Shown in pieces: positions 47,812-55,146 of a stretch of 64,000 nt of DNA; position 1 is the stretch's first letter; every line of letters starts with the position of its first letter. The position numbers were made by a program, and so were the translations under genes. Location: contig JAVLKG010000010.1 in assembly GCA_032128875.1 (NCBI GenBank), positions 32,001-96,000 of the forward strand. Reading direction: 5' to 3'. The notes beneath the pieces are model-generated. The model was not told the origin of the DNA and did not search any database. It worked only from the letters and a program-made list of their open reading frames with translations. The stretch is from Candidatus Melainabacteria bacterium 17Bon1m. GTDB taxonomy: Bacteria; Cyanobacteriota; Vampirovibrionia; Obscuribacterales; Obscuribacteraceae.

Positions 47812-49341
47812 CTAAAACTGGAAGTAGATAAAAGGCTGAGATTCACCGCGACAAATGGCTAAAAGCATTAGTCCAATGAAAAACGAGATACCTATGTTTG
47901 CCATCGCAGGCAGTGGCACGGTCGCGGGAGCAGATAGCGATTTCAAGTCTAAACCAGGAACAAGATGCGATCCTGCGTCGCCCAAGGTCGATGTCTTTTC
48001 TAGCCGTTTTATAAGAGCGCCGCTAGCAAGAATCAAGAGATAGACACAAATTGCAGCGGGCACTGGTGAGTTGAAGAACGAGTGCGCAACTGCGCAATCT
48101 ATTTGTGCAGTCCGCAGTGAGAACATTGCACCGAAAACACCAATCGCCTCAGGCAGGGTTTTTGCGCGGAAAAGAACCCAGCCGCAAAGCACAGTAACGA
48201 TGGTTATTACATGGGCAACTGCCATGCCAACCAACGAATTAGCAGCTCGTGAAAGCGCTGGTGCTTTCGCTAGCTGCTTGTCCCACGCTCTATTGACTGC
48301 TAATCCCACTCCGTGGAAAAGTCCCCACAGGACGAACGTCCATGAAGCTCCGTGCCACAGGCCGCCAAGCAACATAGTCGTGATCAGATTGGCAGATGTC
48401 TGCGCTTCTTTGCCGCGCGAGCCACCCAGAGGAATAAAGAGATAATCGCGCAACCATGTGGACAAACTCATGTGCCAACGGTGCCAGAACTCACGAAGAC
48501 TGGAGGCAATGTACGGCATGTTGAAGTTTTCCGGCAAAGAATAACCCAAGAGCTTCGCCGAACCTCTGCCGATATCTGTGTAGCCGGAGAAGTCATAGTA
48601 AATTTGAAATGCAAAAGCGGCGATACAGAGCCAACCTTCAAACGTTCCCATGAGATTGGGATTATCAAAGCCGGCTTTAACAATCGGCGCAAGATTGTCT
48701 CCCAGTGCGGTTTTCTTGAACAAACCTTGAACAATGAGAAATAGACCTGATGCAAATTGCTCGAAGGTAACTTCAGGCTTTTCATCGAGCTGTTTATCAA
48801 AATCTTGGTAGCGCTTGATTGGACCGGCAATCTGCGACGGGAAGAAGGACGCAAACAAGGCAAAGCGCAAGGGATTCTTTACAGGCTTGCTTCCTTTATA
48901 TATGTCTACAAGGTAATGAATAAACTCGAAGACAAAAAAGGAAATGCCGAGAGGAAGAATGATTGGTAGGTCTGAGATGCCGGTACCTTTGTCCAGCGGA
49001 AAAGCAAGAAAACGCCCCAGCCAGGCGCAAGACGTGTTAATCGAATCGAGAATAAAGTTGGTGTACTTGTAGAGCGCCAACGTAGAAAGGTTGAGGGCTA
49101 TCCCGGCGATCAATATCAGCCGGCGCGTTGCATGCTGCTCGAACCGACCGACAAGCAGCCCCAGCACATAATTGGCGACAGTCAGGCCCAGGAGCAAAAG
49201 CCCGTAGACCTTGAAGGAGTACATGTAAAAGAAGTAGCTAGCCGCAATGAGCAATACCGGCTTCACCTGACGTGGAACGAGCCAGTAGGCAAGAACCACC
49301 ACGGGCAGAAAGACCAGGTATTCGAAGCTATTGAATAACAA
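47812..49341 (-). CDS. MBOAT-family O-acyltransferase (AlgI/PatA-like)
   Basis: MLFNS, LPLGISFF, QIYYDFSGY, FWHRWHMSLS, GLWHGA. Confidence 0.95.
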   Translation of the reverse strand: MLFNSFEYLVFLPVVVLAYWLVPRQVKPVLLIAASYFFYMYSFKVYGLLLLGLTVANYVLGLLVGRFEQHATRRLILIAGIALNLSTLALYKYTNFILDSINTSCAWLGRFLAFPLDKGTGISDLPIILPLGISFFVFEFIHYLVDIYKGSKPVKNPLRFALFASFFPSQIAGPIKRYQDFDKQLDEKPEVTFEQFASGLFLIVQGLFKKTALGDNLAPIVKAGFDNPNLMGTFEGWLCIAAFAFQIYYDFSGYTDIGRGSAKLLGYSLPENFNMPYIASSLREFWHRWHMSLSTWLRDYLFIPLGGSRGKEAQTSANLITTMLLGGLWHGASWTFVLWGLFHGVGLAVNRAWDKQLAKAPALSRAANSLVGMAVAHVITIVTVLCGWVLFRAKTLPEAIGVFGAMFSLRTAQIDCAVAHSFFNSPVPAAICVYLLILASGALIKRLEKTSTLGDAGSHLVPGLDLKSLSAPATVPLPAMANIGISFFIGLMLLAICRGESQPFIYFQF

Positions 49342-49751
49342 AGCGAGGCAGCTCCAAAATCTCGCCGGCCCGAAGCCTTGAAAGGGCTGTATGCCCCATA
49401 TGGCGAGACTTACAGAGTTTACAAGATAGTAAGTCTTGTTCCATGACTACCCTCTCAGGTTGGGCACCCGTACATAAAGCGTTTCTAACAAACCTGAGAG
49501 AAATCGCAGCGAGATATGCAGCCTATTTCGATCGCAGACAAAATCAGTTCTTAATCGATATGCAATCGATAGAATTCTCGCAGTATTCTCGATCATCGTT
49601 GCCGCACGGAATGATCCGGCGCTTGTTAACGAAACCAAGCCACCAAAAGTGGCACCAAAAGCAACGCGATCGAATATCAAGTAATACATCCTTAAATGAC
49701 TACTGGGGTACTTCCGCGCATATTCCAATTTCCAGAATGCGCGATAAACTA

Positions 49752-49966
49752 AATGCATAACCGGTGAGCAATCACTCGAACGAGTTGAGAGCTTTGAGCC
49801 GAGGGGCCCTGTGGAAACATCAGGTTGGCGCTAACCAGATACGGTAGCAAGGGACCCGCATCACATGAAGGACTGACTGAAGTGTGGTGAAATACTGAGC
49901 CCAACGCAAGGGGCAGTCAGGCAGTAGCATGAAGACCGTCGCAGAGCAATCTGGACGGTCTTTTTG
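49752..49966 (+). ncRNA. Unassigned structured RNA, copy 1 (riboswitch-like leader or sRNA) ending in an intrinsic terminator
   Basis: About 90% identical by eye to 52036-52250, with compensatory changes, GNRA loops and an upstream TAAACT. Confidence 0.75.
49932..49966 (+). terminator. Intrinsic terminator of RNA copy 1
   Basis: aagaccgtc…gacggtctt followed by a U-tract. Confidence 0.8.
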
Positions 49967-50086
49967 TTGCGCTAAAATGCAAGCGTAATTGATGTTTCGA
50001 CCAGAGATTTTTTGATGTTTCAACCCGAGATACTTTGAACTTTCGTCAAAGACTCATCGGATAAATCCGCAGGAGATTCACTAAAT

Positions 50087-50416
50087 ATGCCGGTTTTCCC
50101 TGTCCAATTTTTACAACGCATGCGCAACGCTGGACTAGGTGTTTATAGCGAAGCACCGAGCAAAGAAGTCGATGGCGTTGGTCCGCGTGTGACTGCGGTT
50201 GATGGCGATTACAAGGTGTATCTGTACGGTGCAAAGGACAAATGGGTTGTAGAAGCAATATTCTCACCCGAAGAAAAAAGCCCATGCGACTTTCATGCAG
50301 TTTTTGACACTCCAGCCGACGCGGTGGCTGACGCCATCGCATATTTCAAGAAAGATGAGCGCTGGCAAGCAACGAAGGACTTTATGGAAAGCACTGGCAA
50401 AAAACCTCAGCCTTAG
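50087..50416 (+). CDS. Hypothetical protein
   Basis: AGGAG RBS and protein-like composition. Confidence 0.75.
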   Translation: MPVFPVQFLQRMRNAGLGVYSEAPSKEVDGVGPRVTAVDGDYKVYLYGAKDKWVVEAIFSPEEKSPCDFHAVFDTPADAVADAIAYFKKDERWQATKDFMESTGKKPQP

Positions 50417-50501
50417 GCGTTTCCAAACCAGTTTACGCATTTGAGAAATTCAATACAGCCGACATATCAAACGGCTATAATCCGCATATCCCCGCTTATC
50501 A

Positions 50502-51356
50502 TTGGAGCCTGAAGTGCCCAGAGACAGAATAAGTCTTCAAATTCTTTTCGACCGGTTACCGCAATTCAGCGAGCGCGACCTCGATGAAGCAGCAAAGAAT
50601 GTTTCTCACAATCCGCCGGATTTTCGTTATCAACTGCCAAAAGACACATCGGTTGCAGGAGAGGGCGCAGCGTCTTCCAATGCGCACAAAATTCGCATTA
50701 CCTTCAGCGATAAAAAACTCGAAGAGAGAGATTTAGCTCAAATTAGCGCGCACGTGCGTTTGGTCCCGGACACTGTTGCTGCGATCGAAAAACACACGGC
50801 TTATATTGAACTGTCGGTCGAGCCCAATCCTGCAAAACCGCTTGATGCCTATCAGGAGCTCACATTTCTTGCTTGCTTGATCGCTTTGAGAGATGGTTCG
50901 GCGATTACTAATATCAATGGATTTACAAGCTTCAGCGCGCCTGGGATGCTGCAATTGCTAGCTGACAATGATTGGTCGGATGCGATTCAGGAAATGCCTC
51001 CGCTGTTTTTATATTGTGGTCCAGTCTTGCATGAATTCGATAACAACACGAATTTGTGGATGCGCTCCTACGGAAGCCATTTGCTCGGTATTCCCGATCT
51101 GGGCACCATAATCCCAACAGAGATTATTCAAGAATACGTGCCAATGACGCTGCAAATCTTCGACAACATGATGTCTTACATGATTGAGTCTGGGAATGCA
51201 GTCGAGCCCGGCCACACGATGGAGACGGATTCGGTCACGATAAAACTCTTTGACCAACAGGCCGCGGATGATGAATATTTCTATCAAAGCCCTTCAGGCA
51301 TGTTGCGCGTTGAGTACACGCCTAAGCCAGGCTTCGTGATGCCCCGATTTGCATGA
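50502..51356 (+). CDS. Hypothetical protein, DUF4261-like
   Basis: WMRSYGSHLLGIPDL…YMIESG…PGHT pattern. Confidence 0.6.
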   Translation: MEPEVPRDRISLQILFDRLPQFSERDLDEAAKNVSHNPPDFRYQLPKDTSVAGEGAASSNAHKIRITFSDKKLEERDLAQISAHVRLVPDTVAAIEKHTAYIELSVEPNPAKPLDAYQELTFLACLIALRDGSAITNINGFTSFSAPGMLQLLADNDWSDAIQEMPPLFLYCGPVLHEFDNNTNLWMRSYGSHLLGIPDLGTIIPTEIIQEYVPMTLQIFDNMMSYMIESGNAVEPGHTMETDSVTIKLFDQQAADDEYFYQSPSGMLRVEYTPKPGFVMPRFA

Positions 51357-51832
51357 GCGCAGAATTTTTCAGAATAAAAAACGGTCTGGCGCAAAATCTG
51401 ATTTTGCTTTTGGCTGCAATCTGTATACAAGGATGCGGTGAGCAAAAGCATGATTCAAGAGCGGAAGACGGTCCTCAGCGACCGGCGCCCTCAGCAGCGG
51501 CTGCAGAGGATGCTTACAAGAAGCGGTCACTGGAATTTCCTGCCGATTTTCCTTTGCCGAAATATCCGAATTCCGAATTAGAAGCATCGCAGGTAAAACT
51601 GAGTGATAAACCTGCGCACACCGTGATATTGACGTCACGAGATGACGTGCCGACTGTCTCTCATTACTATTTCAAAGCACTGAAACAGGGCGGTTGGGAC
51701 ATCGGAAAAGTCATAAACAACAAAACCTATATGATGCTGACCGCGTCAAAAGATGGTCGAGAAGCCAACGTGATGGTTTCGGAAACCCGCACAGGTATAA
51801 CCGCGATTTCTCTTTACTCGAACAAGAAATAG
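51353..51832 (+). CDS. Putative lipoprotein
   Basis: Lipobox IQGC after a hydrophobic leader, and an FPADFPLPKYP motif. Confidence 0.75.
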   Translation: MSAEFFRIKNGLAQNLILLLAAICIQGCGEQKHDSRAEDGPQRPAPSAAAAEDAYKKRSLEFPADFPLPKYPNSELEASQVKLSDKPAHTVILTSRDDVPTVSHYYFKALKQGGWDIGKVINNKTYMMLTASKDGREANVMVSETRTGITAISLYSNKK

Positions 51833-52035
51833 AGAACGGATATACATCAAACATCCAAAACCCATACTGAATATTGCTCGATCCTGGTAAACCAAGCGCA
51901 TCAAATTGATCCGGCGCTTGTTAATCCATTTAATATGTCCAGGATGGCACCACCTGCGGTTCTTAAGTTTGCCAAGATACCCATTCTAAAATGTCCTTTG
52001 GGGTAGTTGTGCGTATGCCTAAACGCGGTAAACTA

Positions 52036-52250
52036 AATGCATCAACGGTGAGCAATCACTCAAACGAGTTGAGAGCTTTGAGCCGAGGGGCCATGCGGAA
52101 ACGCCAGGTTGGCGCTAACCAGAAACGGTAGCAAGGAGCCCGCATCACATGAAGGACTGACTGAAGTGTGGTGAAATACTGAGCCCTCGCAAAGGGCAGT
52201 CAGGTAGTAGCATGAATACCACCGCAGAGCAATCTGGGTGGTATTTTTGT
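52036..52250 (+). ncRNA. Unassigned structured RNA, copy 2, directly upstream of the TauE/SafE gene
   Basis: Paralog of 49752-49966. Its terminator ends ~30 nt before the CDS start. Confidence 0.75.
52215..52250 (+). terminator. Intrinsic terminator/attenuator of RNA copy 2
   Basis: aataccacc…ggtggtatt followed by a U-tract. Confidence 0.8.
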
Positions 52251-52277
52251 TTGTTCCGCTGAGATTCAGGGCTCACT

Positions 52278-53024
52278 TTGTTCGACTTCGTCCTTCAACT
52301 ACTTAGCTTTCTGGTTATCGCCCTGCTCTACTCCTCAGTCGGGCACGGCGGTGCGACAGGATATCTCGCGATTTTATCGCTGACCAAACTGCCGCCCAAT
52401 GAAATAGCCACGACGGCATTAGTCCTCAACGTGCTCACGGCAACAGTCTCGCTGTTGTTCTTTATCGAATCAAAACACTTCAAATTGAAGGTGTGCGCGC
52501 CACTTCTTGCAACTTCGATTCCAGCAGCTTTTGTTGGTGGAATGATTTCGCTGCACAAGGGCTATTTTCTGCTGCTCGCAGTCGTTCTTTTAGTGACTGC
52601 TTTGAAAATGTTTTACGACAGCTTTCACAAACCCGCTGAAGATTACGAAACCAAGCCGATCAATTATCCTCAAGCATTCGGAATTGGCGCGGGACTTGGA
52701 CTGCTCTCTGGAATGGCTGGTATCGGTGGTGGTGTCTTCCTAAGTCCAGTTCTTTTATTTTTGAACTGGACCACGGTTAAGCAAACTTCCGCAGCGGCAG
52801 CAATTTTCATCGTCTGTAATTCACTCTCTGGGCTGATCGGCAGGGCGGTGACAAACAGATTGGAGTTTGGGTCGATAATGCCGTATTTGGTGGCATCATT
52901 TATCGGAGCGATTGCCGGATCATTTCTTGGTTCGAAAAAACTTCAAAACAATATTCTGCGGCGTGCTTTAGCCGCAGTCCTCATTGTCGCAGTATTTAAG
53001 CTGCTTTTGCTGTTCTTCAAGTAA
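52278..53024 (+). CDS. TauE/SafE (TSUP) family sulfite-exporter-like membrane protein
   Basis: YSSVGHGGA, GIGGGVFLSP, about eight TM helices. Confidence 0.9.
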   Translation: MFDFVLQLLSFLVIALLYSSVGHGGATGYLAILSLTKLPPNEIATTALVLNVLTATVSLLFFIESKHFKLKVCAPLLATSIPAAFVGGMISLHKGYFLLLAVVLLVTALKMFYDSFHKPAEDYETKPINYPQAFGIGAGLGLLSGMAGIGGGVFLSPVLLFLNWTTVKQTSAAAAIFIVCNSLSGLIGRAVTNRLEFGSIMPYLVASFIGAIAGSFLGSKKLQNNILRRALAAVLIVAVFKLLLLFFK

Positions 53025-53069
53025 GACTAAAACCGTCGGCATCCTGCCGGCAAACGATGAAGATGCATA

Positions 53070-53420
53070 CTACTTCTTCAGCAGCAGCTCTATATAAGCT
53101 TCTTCGTTGAAGCCGACGACTATTGTCTTACCTTTACGGAACGTCGGCGCTCTTAAGTTGCCCGTTGGTCCCATCATCAGTGAGGCAATTTCGTCACTGT
53201 CCGCTTTCGCCTTCTTCAAATCGAGGCGAACAATCTTTTTGCCCTTCATCGAATAAAGCTCGTCGGCCTTCGCAGCCATTTCCAACGCAGCCGTTCTATC
53301 AATTTTGTTCTTCTTCGCATCAACGACAACATCCGCTGACACATGTTTGCGCCCAAGAAACTCATGGGCTTTCACGCAGGTCTGTCAGCCATTGCGGTAA
53401 TACAGCCACTCAATTGACAT
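53070..53420 (-). CDS. ArsC-like thioredoxin-fold selenoprotein (UxxC; in-frame TGA at 53385-53387)
   Basis: GGAGG RBS, then ATG…MSIEWLYYRNG-TGA-QTCVKA continuing in frame to GPTGNLRAPT…VVGF. Confidence 0.85.
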
Positions 53421-53648
53421 TTCACTAACCTCCGAAGTCGAAAAGCATTATCTCACCGGGCTCTCAAGGGGAAAAGGCAGGTCGCTTAAGGATAGCCAAA
53501 GTCTCAAACCGGGCGCCCGTGGGCGAGCGTTTGAAATCTCTGTTATTTTGCAGAATATGGGAATATCTTCTGGGGGCTCAAAGTCTCAGGAGCATTTATC
53601 AGAGGCACTAAAGGGAATCCCCAAAGACCAGTTTTAAGGAGCAGCTTC

Positions 53649-54455
53649 ATGCACTTCAATCTCACCCAATTTGCTAATCCAGGTAGCCCAAAACGGGCGA
53701 CCAGAGGGATTCGTAGCCTTCTTAAAGCTTCGGTACCAATCTGTCTATGCGCGACATTTGTCTTGGCAAATGCGGGTTGGGCGGCGGATGCCGCCTTTAA
53801 CGCAGCCGTGCAGACCTTTCACCAAGGCAAGTATGCAGCGGCTCTTGCGCAGTTTCAGGTAGTCGCTCAGAAATACCCTAACGACCCGCTGACCCGTTAC
53901 TACATGGGTCTGTGTTATCAGCACACAAATCAGGTCACGAACGCCCAAGCTATGTACACGTGGGTGGAGCAAAATGCTCGCAGCCCACAATTAAAGGCTC
54001 AGGCAAGAGCAGGGCTCGATTCTATGACGAAATACAGCCAAACCCGCAGTCATCGCGGCTCAGCGTCATCTGACCTGCCGCCCCTGCCGAGTGGCAAGCC
54101 TGACGACCCGAAAGCCCCGGCTGACCCGAAAGCTCCAAAAACTGCCGACGCAAAGAAAGAAGAAAAAGGTGCGTTGAAGTGCAAAAAGGTTATCCAATTT
54201 ACTTCTAGCTCGAGCAACGACCAGCGGACCCTTCAGTTGTTCGGACCATTTTGGGATTCTGCTCAGCAGAAGTTTCAAGGCAAGGTCGAGTTTCAGTTGG
54301 TTGACGTAGACAACGCCGGCTCAGAAGCTCTAGTTAAGAAGTACTCGCCGTCGACTTATCCACACCTAATCTATTTGGACAAAGACGGAAAAGTGCTAAA
54401 CAGCCAGGGCGGTGCTTCTGGCGACATCATCGGCACGATCGAAGGGTTTAAATAA
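53649..54455 (+). CDS. Exported protein with a TPR domain and a C-terminal thioredoxin-like domain lacking CxxC
   Basis: Signal peptide ending GWA, TPR, then KKVIQF…VEFQLVDVD…YPHLIYLDKDG. Confidence 0.75.
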   Translation: MHFNLTQFANPGSPKRATRGIRSLLKASVPICLCATFVLANAGWAADAAFNAAVQTFHQGKYAAALAQFQVVAQKYPNDPLTRYYMGLCYQHTNQVTNAQAMYTWVEQNARSPQLKAQARAGLDSMTKYSQTRSHRGSASSDLPPLPSGKPDDPKAPADPKAPKTADAKKEEKGALKCKKVIQFTSSSSNDQRTLQLFGPFWDSAQQKFQGKVEFQLVDVDNAGSEALVKKYSPSTYPHLIYLDKDGKVLNSQGGASGDIIGTIEGFK

Positions 54456-54459
54456 ACTT

Positions 54460-55146
54460 CTAAGTCTTCTCTGACAGAGCGTATGCAGCAATGCCGAACG
54501 CGACAGAAACGTTCAGTGATTCTTTCATGCCTTTCATTGGCAAGTCAGCGACGATATCGCTGAGCGCCAGCGCCTCTGCAGAGACACCAGAAACCTCATT
54601 ACCGACAACCAGGCAAAGCGGCCTGGAGATTTTTCCTTCAGCGAGTAACTTAGTAAGCGGCTGAGAGTTTTCTGTTTTCTCCAACGCAACAATGTTGAAG
54701 CCGCGCTCTTTTAGTTCTCTCAAAATCTCGATGCAACCAAAACGCCATTCCCAATTGACGGTGTTTTCCGCACCAAGACTGACTTTCTCAATCTCTTTGC
54801 GAGGTGGTGCGCCGGTAATTCCGCACATATAAATCTTGTCCATGCCTGCACCATCCGCGGTGCGGAAAATTGCGCCGACATTGAACAAACTGCGCACATC
54901 TTCCACGACGGCCACAAACTGTTCTACATAACCGTTGCCACTTTTAGCGCTGTCATTGATGTTGACGATGCCCATGCGCTTGCGCTTTTCCTGCTCTCTC
55001 TCGAGCGTGGCAAAAACAGCAGCCAAACGGGCGGTAATGTGGCGCCCACAAGCAGGACATGTGGTCTTCGTGCGCCCGGCAGGAAGGTCGGCGCTGAAGC
55101 GCTCGTGACATTCCGGGTAAGGGCAAAAGGTTTCCGTAAGCGGCAT
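54460..55146 (-). CDS. TrmH/SpoU-family RNA methyltransferase with an N-terminal Zn-ribbon
   Basis: NVGAIFRTAD, VGNE..G, ESLNVSVA. N-terminal CPYPEC…CPAC. Confidence 0.9.
   Translation of the reverse strand: MPLTETFCPYPECHERFSADLPAGRTKTTCPACGRHITARLAAVFATLEREQEKRKRMGIVNINDSAKSGNGYVEQFVAVVEDVRSLFNVGAIFRTADGAGMDKIYMCGITGAPPRKEIEKVSLGAENTVNWEWRFGCIEILRELKERGFNIVALEKTENSQPLTKLLAEGKISRPLCLVVGNEVSGVSAEALALSDIVADLPMKGMKESLNVSVAFGIAAYALSEKT

Follow-up and report, generated by a model that had tools for sequence, protein, structure and literature searches.

This study focused on two closely similar RNA elements that lie about 2.3 kb apart on one contig of Candidatus Melainabacteria bacterium 17Bon1m (assembly GCA_032128875.1, contig JAVLKG010000010.1, positions 32,001 to 96,000 of the forward strand). 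This whole stretch of 64,000 nucleotides is referred to as the window, and positions are those of the window unless another contig is named. The locus raises two questions: to which family of RNAs do the elements belong, and do they control the genes that follow them or act as genes in their own right? A preliminary description, made from the sequence, had taken them for a duplicated structured RNA of unrecognised family, and for either a new riboswitch or attenuator or a pair of paralogous small RNAs (sRNAs). Both elements were found to match a family already present in Rfam, poplar-1 (RF03041), and the reading favoured here, at a probability of roughly 0.75, is that they are self-contained poplar-1 genes, two of eight paralogues in the genome, which depend on their fold and are co-regulated.

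When the whole window was scanned against Rfam 15 at gathering thresholds, exactly two matches were returned, both of them to RF03041 (type sRNA). Copy 1 scored 136.5 bits (E 1.8e-30) and copy 2 149.5 bits (E 7.1e-34), against a gathering score of 110.5, and both spanned all 141 of the 141 model positions, with neither match cut off. No other Rfam family was found over either copy in a permissive scan, with E values up to 5; the sole extra match at that threshold, to mir-26 (E 3.7), lay elsewhere in the region and was dismissed as chance. That both elements are members of poplar-1 can hardly be doubted. The comparison with Rfam had been named beforehand as the check that could remove the novelty of the RNA, and the significant match to a known family has removed it: the claim of discovery falls because the family was already catalogued, and the RNAs of the window belong to a known family and do not look like a new riboswitch.

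Poplar-1 is said to have been described originally only from a poplar wood-chip metagenome, without a host organism and with the question of cis or trans action left open. RF03041 goes back to a screen that produced 224 candidate structured RNAs (Weinberg et al. 2017, PMC5737381, in the part of the record consulted); the word 'poplar' was not found in the main text of that paper, the supplements not being covered. In the portion of a drinking-water metatranscriptome preprint that was available, poplar-1 is listed among sRNAs enriched in intracellular RNA. A literature search, which did not extend to the current Rfam annotation or the 2017 supplements, found no paper stating that Obscuribacterales are hosts of poplar-1.

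Eight poplar-1 matches, all above the cut-off, were present in the genome of the window (7.55 Mb in 35 contigs, 93% complete): the two described here, four on a contig designated C1 (at 139142, 140834, 142472 and 152250), one on the minus strand of contig C2, and one on contig C4. None was found in 14 control genomes (0/14). Among 60 relatives searched, the family was carried by 34 of 36 genomes of the same taxonomic family and by all three genomes of another family in the order, each carrier having 1 to 12 matches; it was found neither in 21 genomes representing seven further families of the class nor in any of the 150 other genomes of a phylum-wide sample of 30 families. An exact-pattern scan of species-representative genomes yielded at least 81 stretches, and the records that carried them were almost all metagenome-assembled genomes (MAGs) labelled Candidatus Obscuribacterales, Obscuribacteraceae, Melainabacteria or 'Cyanobacteria bacterium'; at NCBI, Obscuribacterales sits within Candidatus Melainabacteria. 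Phage and plasmid collections gave no blastn match. Judged from genome sequences, poplar-1 appears to be tied to a single order, Obscuribacterales, and its hosts are non-photosynthetic relatives of cyanobacteria. A few pattern-carrying records bore the labels of Actinobacteria, Alphaproteobacteria, Flavobacterium psychrophilum, Oculatellaceae or Shapirobacteria MAGs, and these are likelier to be mislabelled or contaminated bins than true hosts; the Shapirobacteria match, with its different gap length, may be chance.

The extent of the gene was judged from a family alignment of the genome's own eight copies with their flanks, together with 97 unique copies from 118 loci. Similarity among copies sets in before the Rfam core and is lost immediately behind the T run of the terminator. 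Upstream lies a bipartite motif which, written as TAAA[AT]-N7-10-GGGGTA[CG]TT, occurs eight times in the 7.55-Mb genome, every time upstream of a poplar-1 copy; the spacing from TAAAW to GGGGTA is 13 in 89 of 91 copies, that is, TAAAW-N8-GGGGTA. From GGGGTA to the invariant CGGTGAG the distance is 44-48 nt in 85 of 97 copies, most commonly 46 (54/97), as in copy 2. In six of the 97, the orthologues of copy 1, it is 57, one helical turn more, and the motif of copy 1 stands 11 nt farther from the RNA than in most copies. Between motif and RNA, a hexamer fitting TAnnnT was present in each of the 91 copies examined, with varying letters (TAAACT in 43, TATATT, TATTCT and TAGATT in 10 each, others in 18). 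This is the putative -10 box, and transcription is predicted to start about 7 nt downstream of it, near 49757 and 52041. Because the upstream motif is both shared by the copies and exclusive to them, they are probably controlled together. With eight copies in the genome, each possessing its own promoter-like element and terminator, the option of paralogous sRNAs in the preliminary description is supported. The upstream similarity of most copies reaches about 95-130 nt from the RNA, for example as a 'ccaaga' block in the 97-copy consensus, and the stretch beyond TAAAW-GGGGTA (49650-49690 in the window, and its equivalents) may hold further regulatory sites.

Covariation was scored at 54 pairs in 91 distinct poplar-1 sequences. 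Overall, bases are paired in 97.0% of cells, a figure that drops to 33-40% if the partners are displaced by 1-3 columns, and compensatory change is seen at 32 of the 54 pairs; the covariation score was 0.352 compared with 0.152 in shuffles, none of 500 of which reached the observed value. The core helices are 94.8-100% paired, as in Rfam, and model helices 2-5 and 8 (94.8-99.6%) contain 3-6 compensatory pairs each. The 5' hairpin (P0), which in copy 1 consists of a GAGC/GCUU stem, an inner hairpin and an invariant GGU/GCC extension, is 95.0% paired at columns 24-29/50-55, with three of six pairs compensatory (e.g., CG 40, GC 20, AU 15). The terminator, at columns 201-215/221-234, is 96.1% paired with compensatory change at 9 of its 14 pairs, and its cap is mostly GCAA. 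The segments of a predicted pseudoknot, CUGACU in a hairpin loop and AGUCAG in an internal loop, are complementary in 99.8% of cells, both sides being invariant and one of them fixed by the search pattern. Conservation is high outside the stems as well: of the 85 unpaired columns in the core, 43 reach 95% conservation or more.

The two window copies form a direct repeat in two blocks, 49740-49902 with 52024-52186 (93% identity, start-to-start spacing 2284 nt) and 49905-49968 with 52188-52251 (88%, spacing 2283 nt). The preliminary description had noted two copies about 2.3 kb apart with some 20 differences that mostly preserve pairing, and the repeat is real: 22 of 223 columns of the family alignment differ. 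Six of the 22 make up three fully compensatory pairs in the terminator, all of which had been proposed from the two copies and were recovered in the alignment, namely 49934/49960 (G-C in copy 1, U-A in copy 2), 49938/49956 (G-C to A-U) and 49939/49955 (U-A to C-G). At 49812 a U-G pair becomes C-G, and at 49854 a C-A mismatch becomes C-G; two further differences fall in a non-canonical closing pair and 12 in unpaired columns. Folded singly, both copies were more stable than dinucleotide shuffles, copy 1 at -77.5 kcal/mol (z -3.27) and copy 2 at -75.6 kcal/mol (z -3.72). The GCAA loops, the complementary CTGACTG and CAGTCAG and the upstream TAAACT that had been pointed out are all present in the sequence. 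Two of the proposed pairings were not retained. The family as a whole does not preserve a local gtg-GAAA-cat hairpin, with 65.9% of cells paired, no better than shuffles, and its middle pair unpaired in 58 of 91 sequences; its bases belong instead to a long-range Rfam helix (columns 72-74/110-112) that is 99.6% paired and shows compensatory changes at all three pairs. The pairing of ctcgaa with tttgag does not occur in the minimum free energy (MFE) folds of the two copies, and it competes with the 5' hairpin, for which there is support from covariation.

Expression data were taken from assembled contigs of four RNA-Seq runs (X1-X4) of one plankton-metagenome sample, which contain 97-98% of the words sampled from 49400-52700; runs X5-X23, with small shares or of uncertain kind, were left out. 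The mean word depth of a contig confined to copy 1 (49779 to 49964 or 49968) was 2828 in X1 and 5050 in X4; in X3 a shorter contig (49873-49968) had a depth of 651. The flanking contigs had depths of 17.6 and 11.3 in X1, 53.7 and 42.1 in X4, and 91 and 9.8 in X3, so that the copy 1 contig stands at about 100-250 times flank depth, and at the copy 1 terminator depth falls from thousands to about 10-40. This step fits a discrete, very abundant transcript with little read-through. In X2, one contig joins the region upstream of copy 2 (52062) back to copy 1 (49779), a jump of 2284, which is most simply explained as assembly collapse across the repeat.

Table 1. Features of the two poplar-1 genes and the neighbouring transporter gene (window coordinates; all on the plus strand).
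Feature	Position	Strand	Remarks
Copy 1, upstream motif	49692..49710	+	TTAAAT 49692-49697, 8-nt gap, GGGGTA 49705-49710
Copy 1, -10-like box	49745..49750	+	TAAACT; comparative pattern
Copy 1, 5' hairpin P0	49763..49800	+	covariation and MFE fold; outside the Rfam model
Copy 1, poplar-1 core	49793..49931	+	RF03041 positions 1-141
Copy 1, intrinsic terminator	49931..49968	+	14-bp bulged hairpin, GCAA cap, then TTTTTGTT
Copy 2, upstream motif	51987..52005	+	TAAAAT 51987-51992, gap, GGGGTA 52000-52005
Copy 2, -10-like box	52029..52034	+	TAAACT; TTGTGC 16 nt upstream, 52007-52012
Copy 2, 5' hairpin P0	52047..52084	+	covariation and copy 2 fold
Copy 2, poplar-1 core	52077..52214	+	RF03041 positions 1-141
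Copy 2, intrinsic terminator	52214..52253	+	GAATACCACCGCAGA-GCAA-TCTGGGTGGTATT, then T run
TauE/SafE-family transporter gene	52278..53024	+	PF01925, E 1.7e-32; neighbour, outside the RNA

In the explanation preferred here, each transcription unit would comprise the TAAAW-N8-GGGGTA motif, the TAnnnT -10 box, the 5' hairpin, the 141-nt core with its modelled loop-to-internal-loop pseudoknot, and the strong intrinsic terminator. The RNA, predicted to be about 205-210 nt long, would be made as a discrete, abundant molecule acting in trans, and may work as a structured particle that binds a protein or a small ligand; a single factor reading the shared upstream motif would co-regulate the copies. 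The parts of this explanation differ in strength. That poplar-1 is a stand-alone, trans-acting gene is likely, and binding of a partner through the fold, rather than pairing through a seed, is plausible at somewhat less than even odds.

Several points weigh against this explanation. The ends of the copy 1 contig coincide with sequence shared among paralogues, the loose end at 49968 leading on into the stretch that follows the C2 copy, and they are therefore branch points of the assembly graph and not transcript ends. Contig depth reflects expression poorly, DNA can occur in such libraries, and the data derive from a single sample; in the core of copy 2, positions 52093-52163 are uncovered by the listed contig pieces, and the depth result is one for copy 1 only. 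The proposed promoters and terminators escaped generic sigma-70 and terminator scans; the terminator is bulged and long-stemmed, and the -10 box agrees with TATAAT at four of six positions. Covariation is silent on the pseudoknot and on helix P4a because both are invariant in the set. Searches of the 93.22%-complete genome for a partner protein turned up none of CsrA (PF02599), Hfq and Ro/TROVE; at this level of completeness, their failure to appear is not proof of absence, and a control search for PF02599 found it in 3 of 14 genomes. Finally, on an open reading frame (ORF) map that is crude (longest ORF, at least 80 aa), 55 of 95 next ORFs lie on the same strand, at a median distance of 56 nt, and the TauE gene starts about 29 nt past the copy 2 terminator, so some downstream genes may depend on read-through.

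The last of these points also speaks for the cis-acting alternative, in which the domain would be a leader, riboswitch or attenuator that senses a signal and sets terminator read-through into the downstream gene. A same-strand ORF does come next after both window copies and all four C1 copies, there is no obvious room before TauE for a promoter of its own, and the conservation pattern is aptamer-like. Across the family, however, of 110 unique copies, 55 are followed by a neighbour on the same strand, 40 by a convergent one and one by a further RNA copy, and in 14 cases the locus contains no downstream neighbour; the 95 downstream proteins fell into 44 clusters, of which 22 are same-strand and 22 convergent (15 and 13, respectively, among clusters reaching 150 aa). 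Within the genome itself, two of the eight copies, those on C2 and C4, have a divergent gene upstream and a convergent gene downstream. The downstream genes share no function, pathway or ligand: their families are unrelated, and include TauE, M16 peptidase, Ser/Thr kinase, POT transporter, a 3-hydroxyisobutyrate-dehydrogenase-like protein and a (weakly) PspA-like coiled-coil protein, along with proteins of unknown family. Adjacent copies have the same strand in 35 of 35 cases, at spacings of 514-3273 nt, and arrays spaced at 514-564 nt leave about 300 nt between copies. A simple, ungapped and therefore weak search for alternative helices gave at best 4-8 bp at scattered columns, compared with the 14 bp of the terminator, and no conserved antiterminator partner; the copy 1 terminator, moreover, marks a drop in contig depth of two orders of magnitude. 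With 44 unrelated downstream clusters, half of them convergent, the proposal of a new riboswitch or attenuator is not supported, and a cis-acting role is improbable in general, though conceivable for copies directly followed by a gene such as TauE.

The accompanying suggestion of a connection with sulfur, selenium or metals came from a single neighbour, TauE, which does directly follow copy 2 as had been described but is specific to copy 2 orthologues (8 loci). Nor was the selenoprotein gene that had been placed near TauE recovered, since reading TGA as selenocysteine across 53649-54560 and across 53030-53500 of the minus strand gave no convincing frame. The ORF at 53649-54455 encodes 268 aa with TPR repeats and a weakly thioredoxin-like C-terminal part, and no in-frame TGA was seen in it. 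Between the copy 1 terminator and a 109-aa ORF (50087) there are two tandem 23-nt repeats, 83% alike (49989-50034). On contig C1, poplar-1 copies form a tandem array at 139142-142611, each with a gene for a paralogous protein of 344 or 360 aa behind it; the two proteins share 27% identity, begin with a hydrophobic stretch and bear a weak likeness to PspA/IM30, and their cluster also flanks poplar-1 copies at loci in other genomes. They were considered as a clue and set aside, the Pfam and Atlas leads being weak and without a link to the RNA. About 175 nt past the third C1 copy starts an ORF of 2915 aa (142786-151533), the first 442 residues of which matched no Pfam family.

The neighbourhoods also bear on whether the elements could be selfish, mobile repeats resembling miniature inverted-repeat transposable elements (MITEs) that merely carry a stable fold. 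In favour of this, genomes carry multiple copies, dispersed and in tandem, but paralogues keep their own neighbours across genomes (copy 2 with TauE at 8 loci, copy 1 with the 109-aa ORF at 5), and the copies are therefore old and syntenic rather than recently mobile. No terminal inverted repeats were found at the unit ends, and only two weak inverted pairs within 48000-54000. The unit starts at a promoter-like motif and ends exactly at a terminator, phage and plasmid collections hold no match, and the stems covary around invariant loops, which points to selection on the RNA. A MITE-like origin is accordingly very improbable.

A closer competitor for part of the preferred reading is a family of trans-acting, base-pairing sRNAs, in which a conserved single-stranded segment would pair with mRNAs or with other sRNAs. 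The model for this is Yfr2, which we take to be the Rfam family Cyano-1 (RF01701). Its genes number 2 to 9 per genome and are abundant and induced through a GntR regulator (PMC6778093, in the part consulted). Poplar-1 is likewise multi-copy, apparently abundant and independently transcribed, and provided with a common promoter motif, and it has several invariant unpaired stretches, such as UUUGAGCCGAG and GAAAUACUGAG, that could serve for pairing. Set against this, a scan of every 11- and 12-mer of the RNA against the genome, a crude procedure that ignores gene starts, found no excess of complementary sites (11-mer maximum 14, median 3.5), Hfq was not found in the 93%-complete genome, and neither were Yfr1 and Cyano-1. 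Conservation, moreover, extends over many junction and loop positions of a pseudoknotted fold and is not concentrated in one seed. Seed pairing is thus judged unlikely, and the fold-dependent mode is favoured because about half of the unpaired core is nearly invariant while the stems covary, and because a multi-helix, pseudoknotted fold is combined with the lack of a genome-wide excess of complementary sites.

What has been gained is descriptive: an orphan motif acquires a host order, a whole gene model, conserved loci, and an argument for action in trans over cis. This narrows the study of what appears to be a very abundant RNA in an uncultured, little-studied lineage that is sister to the cyanobacteria. 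A more ambitious proposal, which we put forward as speculative, is that poplar-1 is a lineage-defining, very abundant particle RNA of Obscuribacterales with a dedicated transcription factor that reads TAAAW-N8-GGGGTA. If true, it might be the RNA subunit or decoy of a protein, a ligand-sensing RNA acting in trans, or a ribozyme, encoded by up to a dozen genes, and would represent a new functional class of bacterial RNA as opposed to an ordinary seed-pairing sRNA.

The relationship of poplar-1 to known systems can be set out as follows. Like transcriptional riboswitches, poplar-1 combines covarying stems with junctions and loops of invariant sequence, and its fold is followed immediately on the 3' side by an intrinsic terminator. 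It departs from them in that half of its downstream contexts are convergent, the genes behind it belong to unrelated families, and the simple, ungapped (weak) search gave no conserved antiterminator. The Csr/Rsm sRNAs (CsrB, RsmX/Y/Z) resemble it in having paralogous copies and a shared upstream activating motif, and the conserved loops GGAAAC and AAGGAC of the poplar-1 alignment contain GGA. A sponge RNA of this type was rejected, as no CsrA gene (PF02599) was found in the 93%-complete genome and the GGA motifs number two or three; the poplar-1 fold is also compact and pseudoknotted, whereas Csr/Rsm RNAs are a string of hairpins. The nearest functional analogue would be Yfr2 of cyanobacteria, which is multi-copy, abundant, independently transcribed and under a dedicated regulator (PMC6778093, in the part consulted). 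Membership of Yfr2/Cyano-1 itself was discarded: RF01701 and Yfr1 were not found in the genome, and no sub-threshold match overlapped the copies at E values up to 5. Poplar-1 has a multi-helix, pseudoknotted fold and occupies conserved loci, in contrast to the unconserved loci reported for yfr2 genes in the consulted part of the same source. From poplar-1 as defined by RF03041 the RNAs described here show no difference in kind: they retain every helix of the model, and five of these covary. The genes of the window, however, extend beyond the model, which lacks the covarying 5' hairpin, the conserved intrinsic terminator with its GCAA cap and the dedicated upstream motif.

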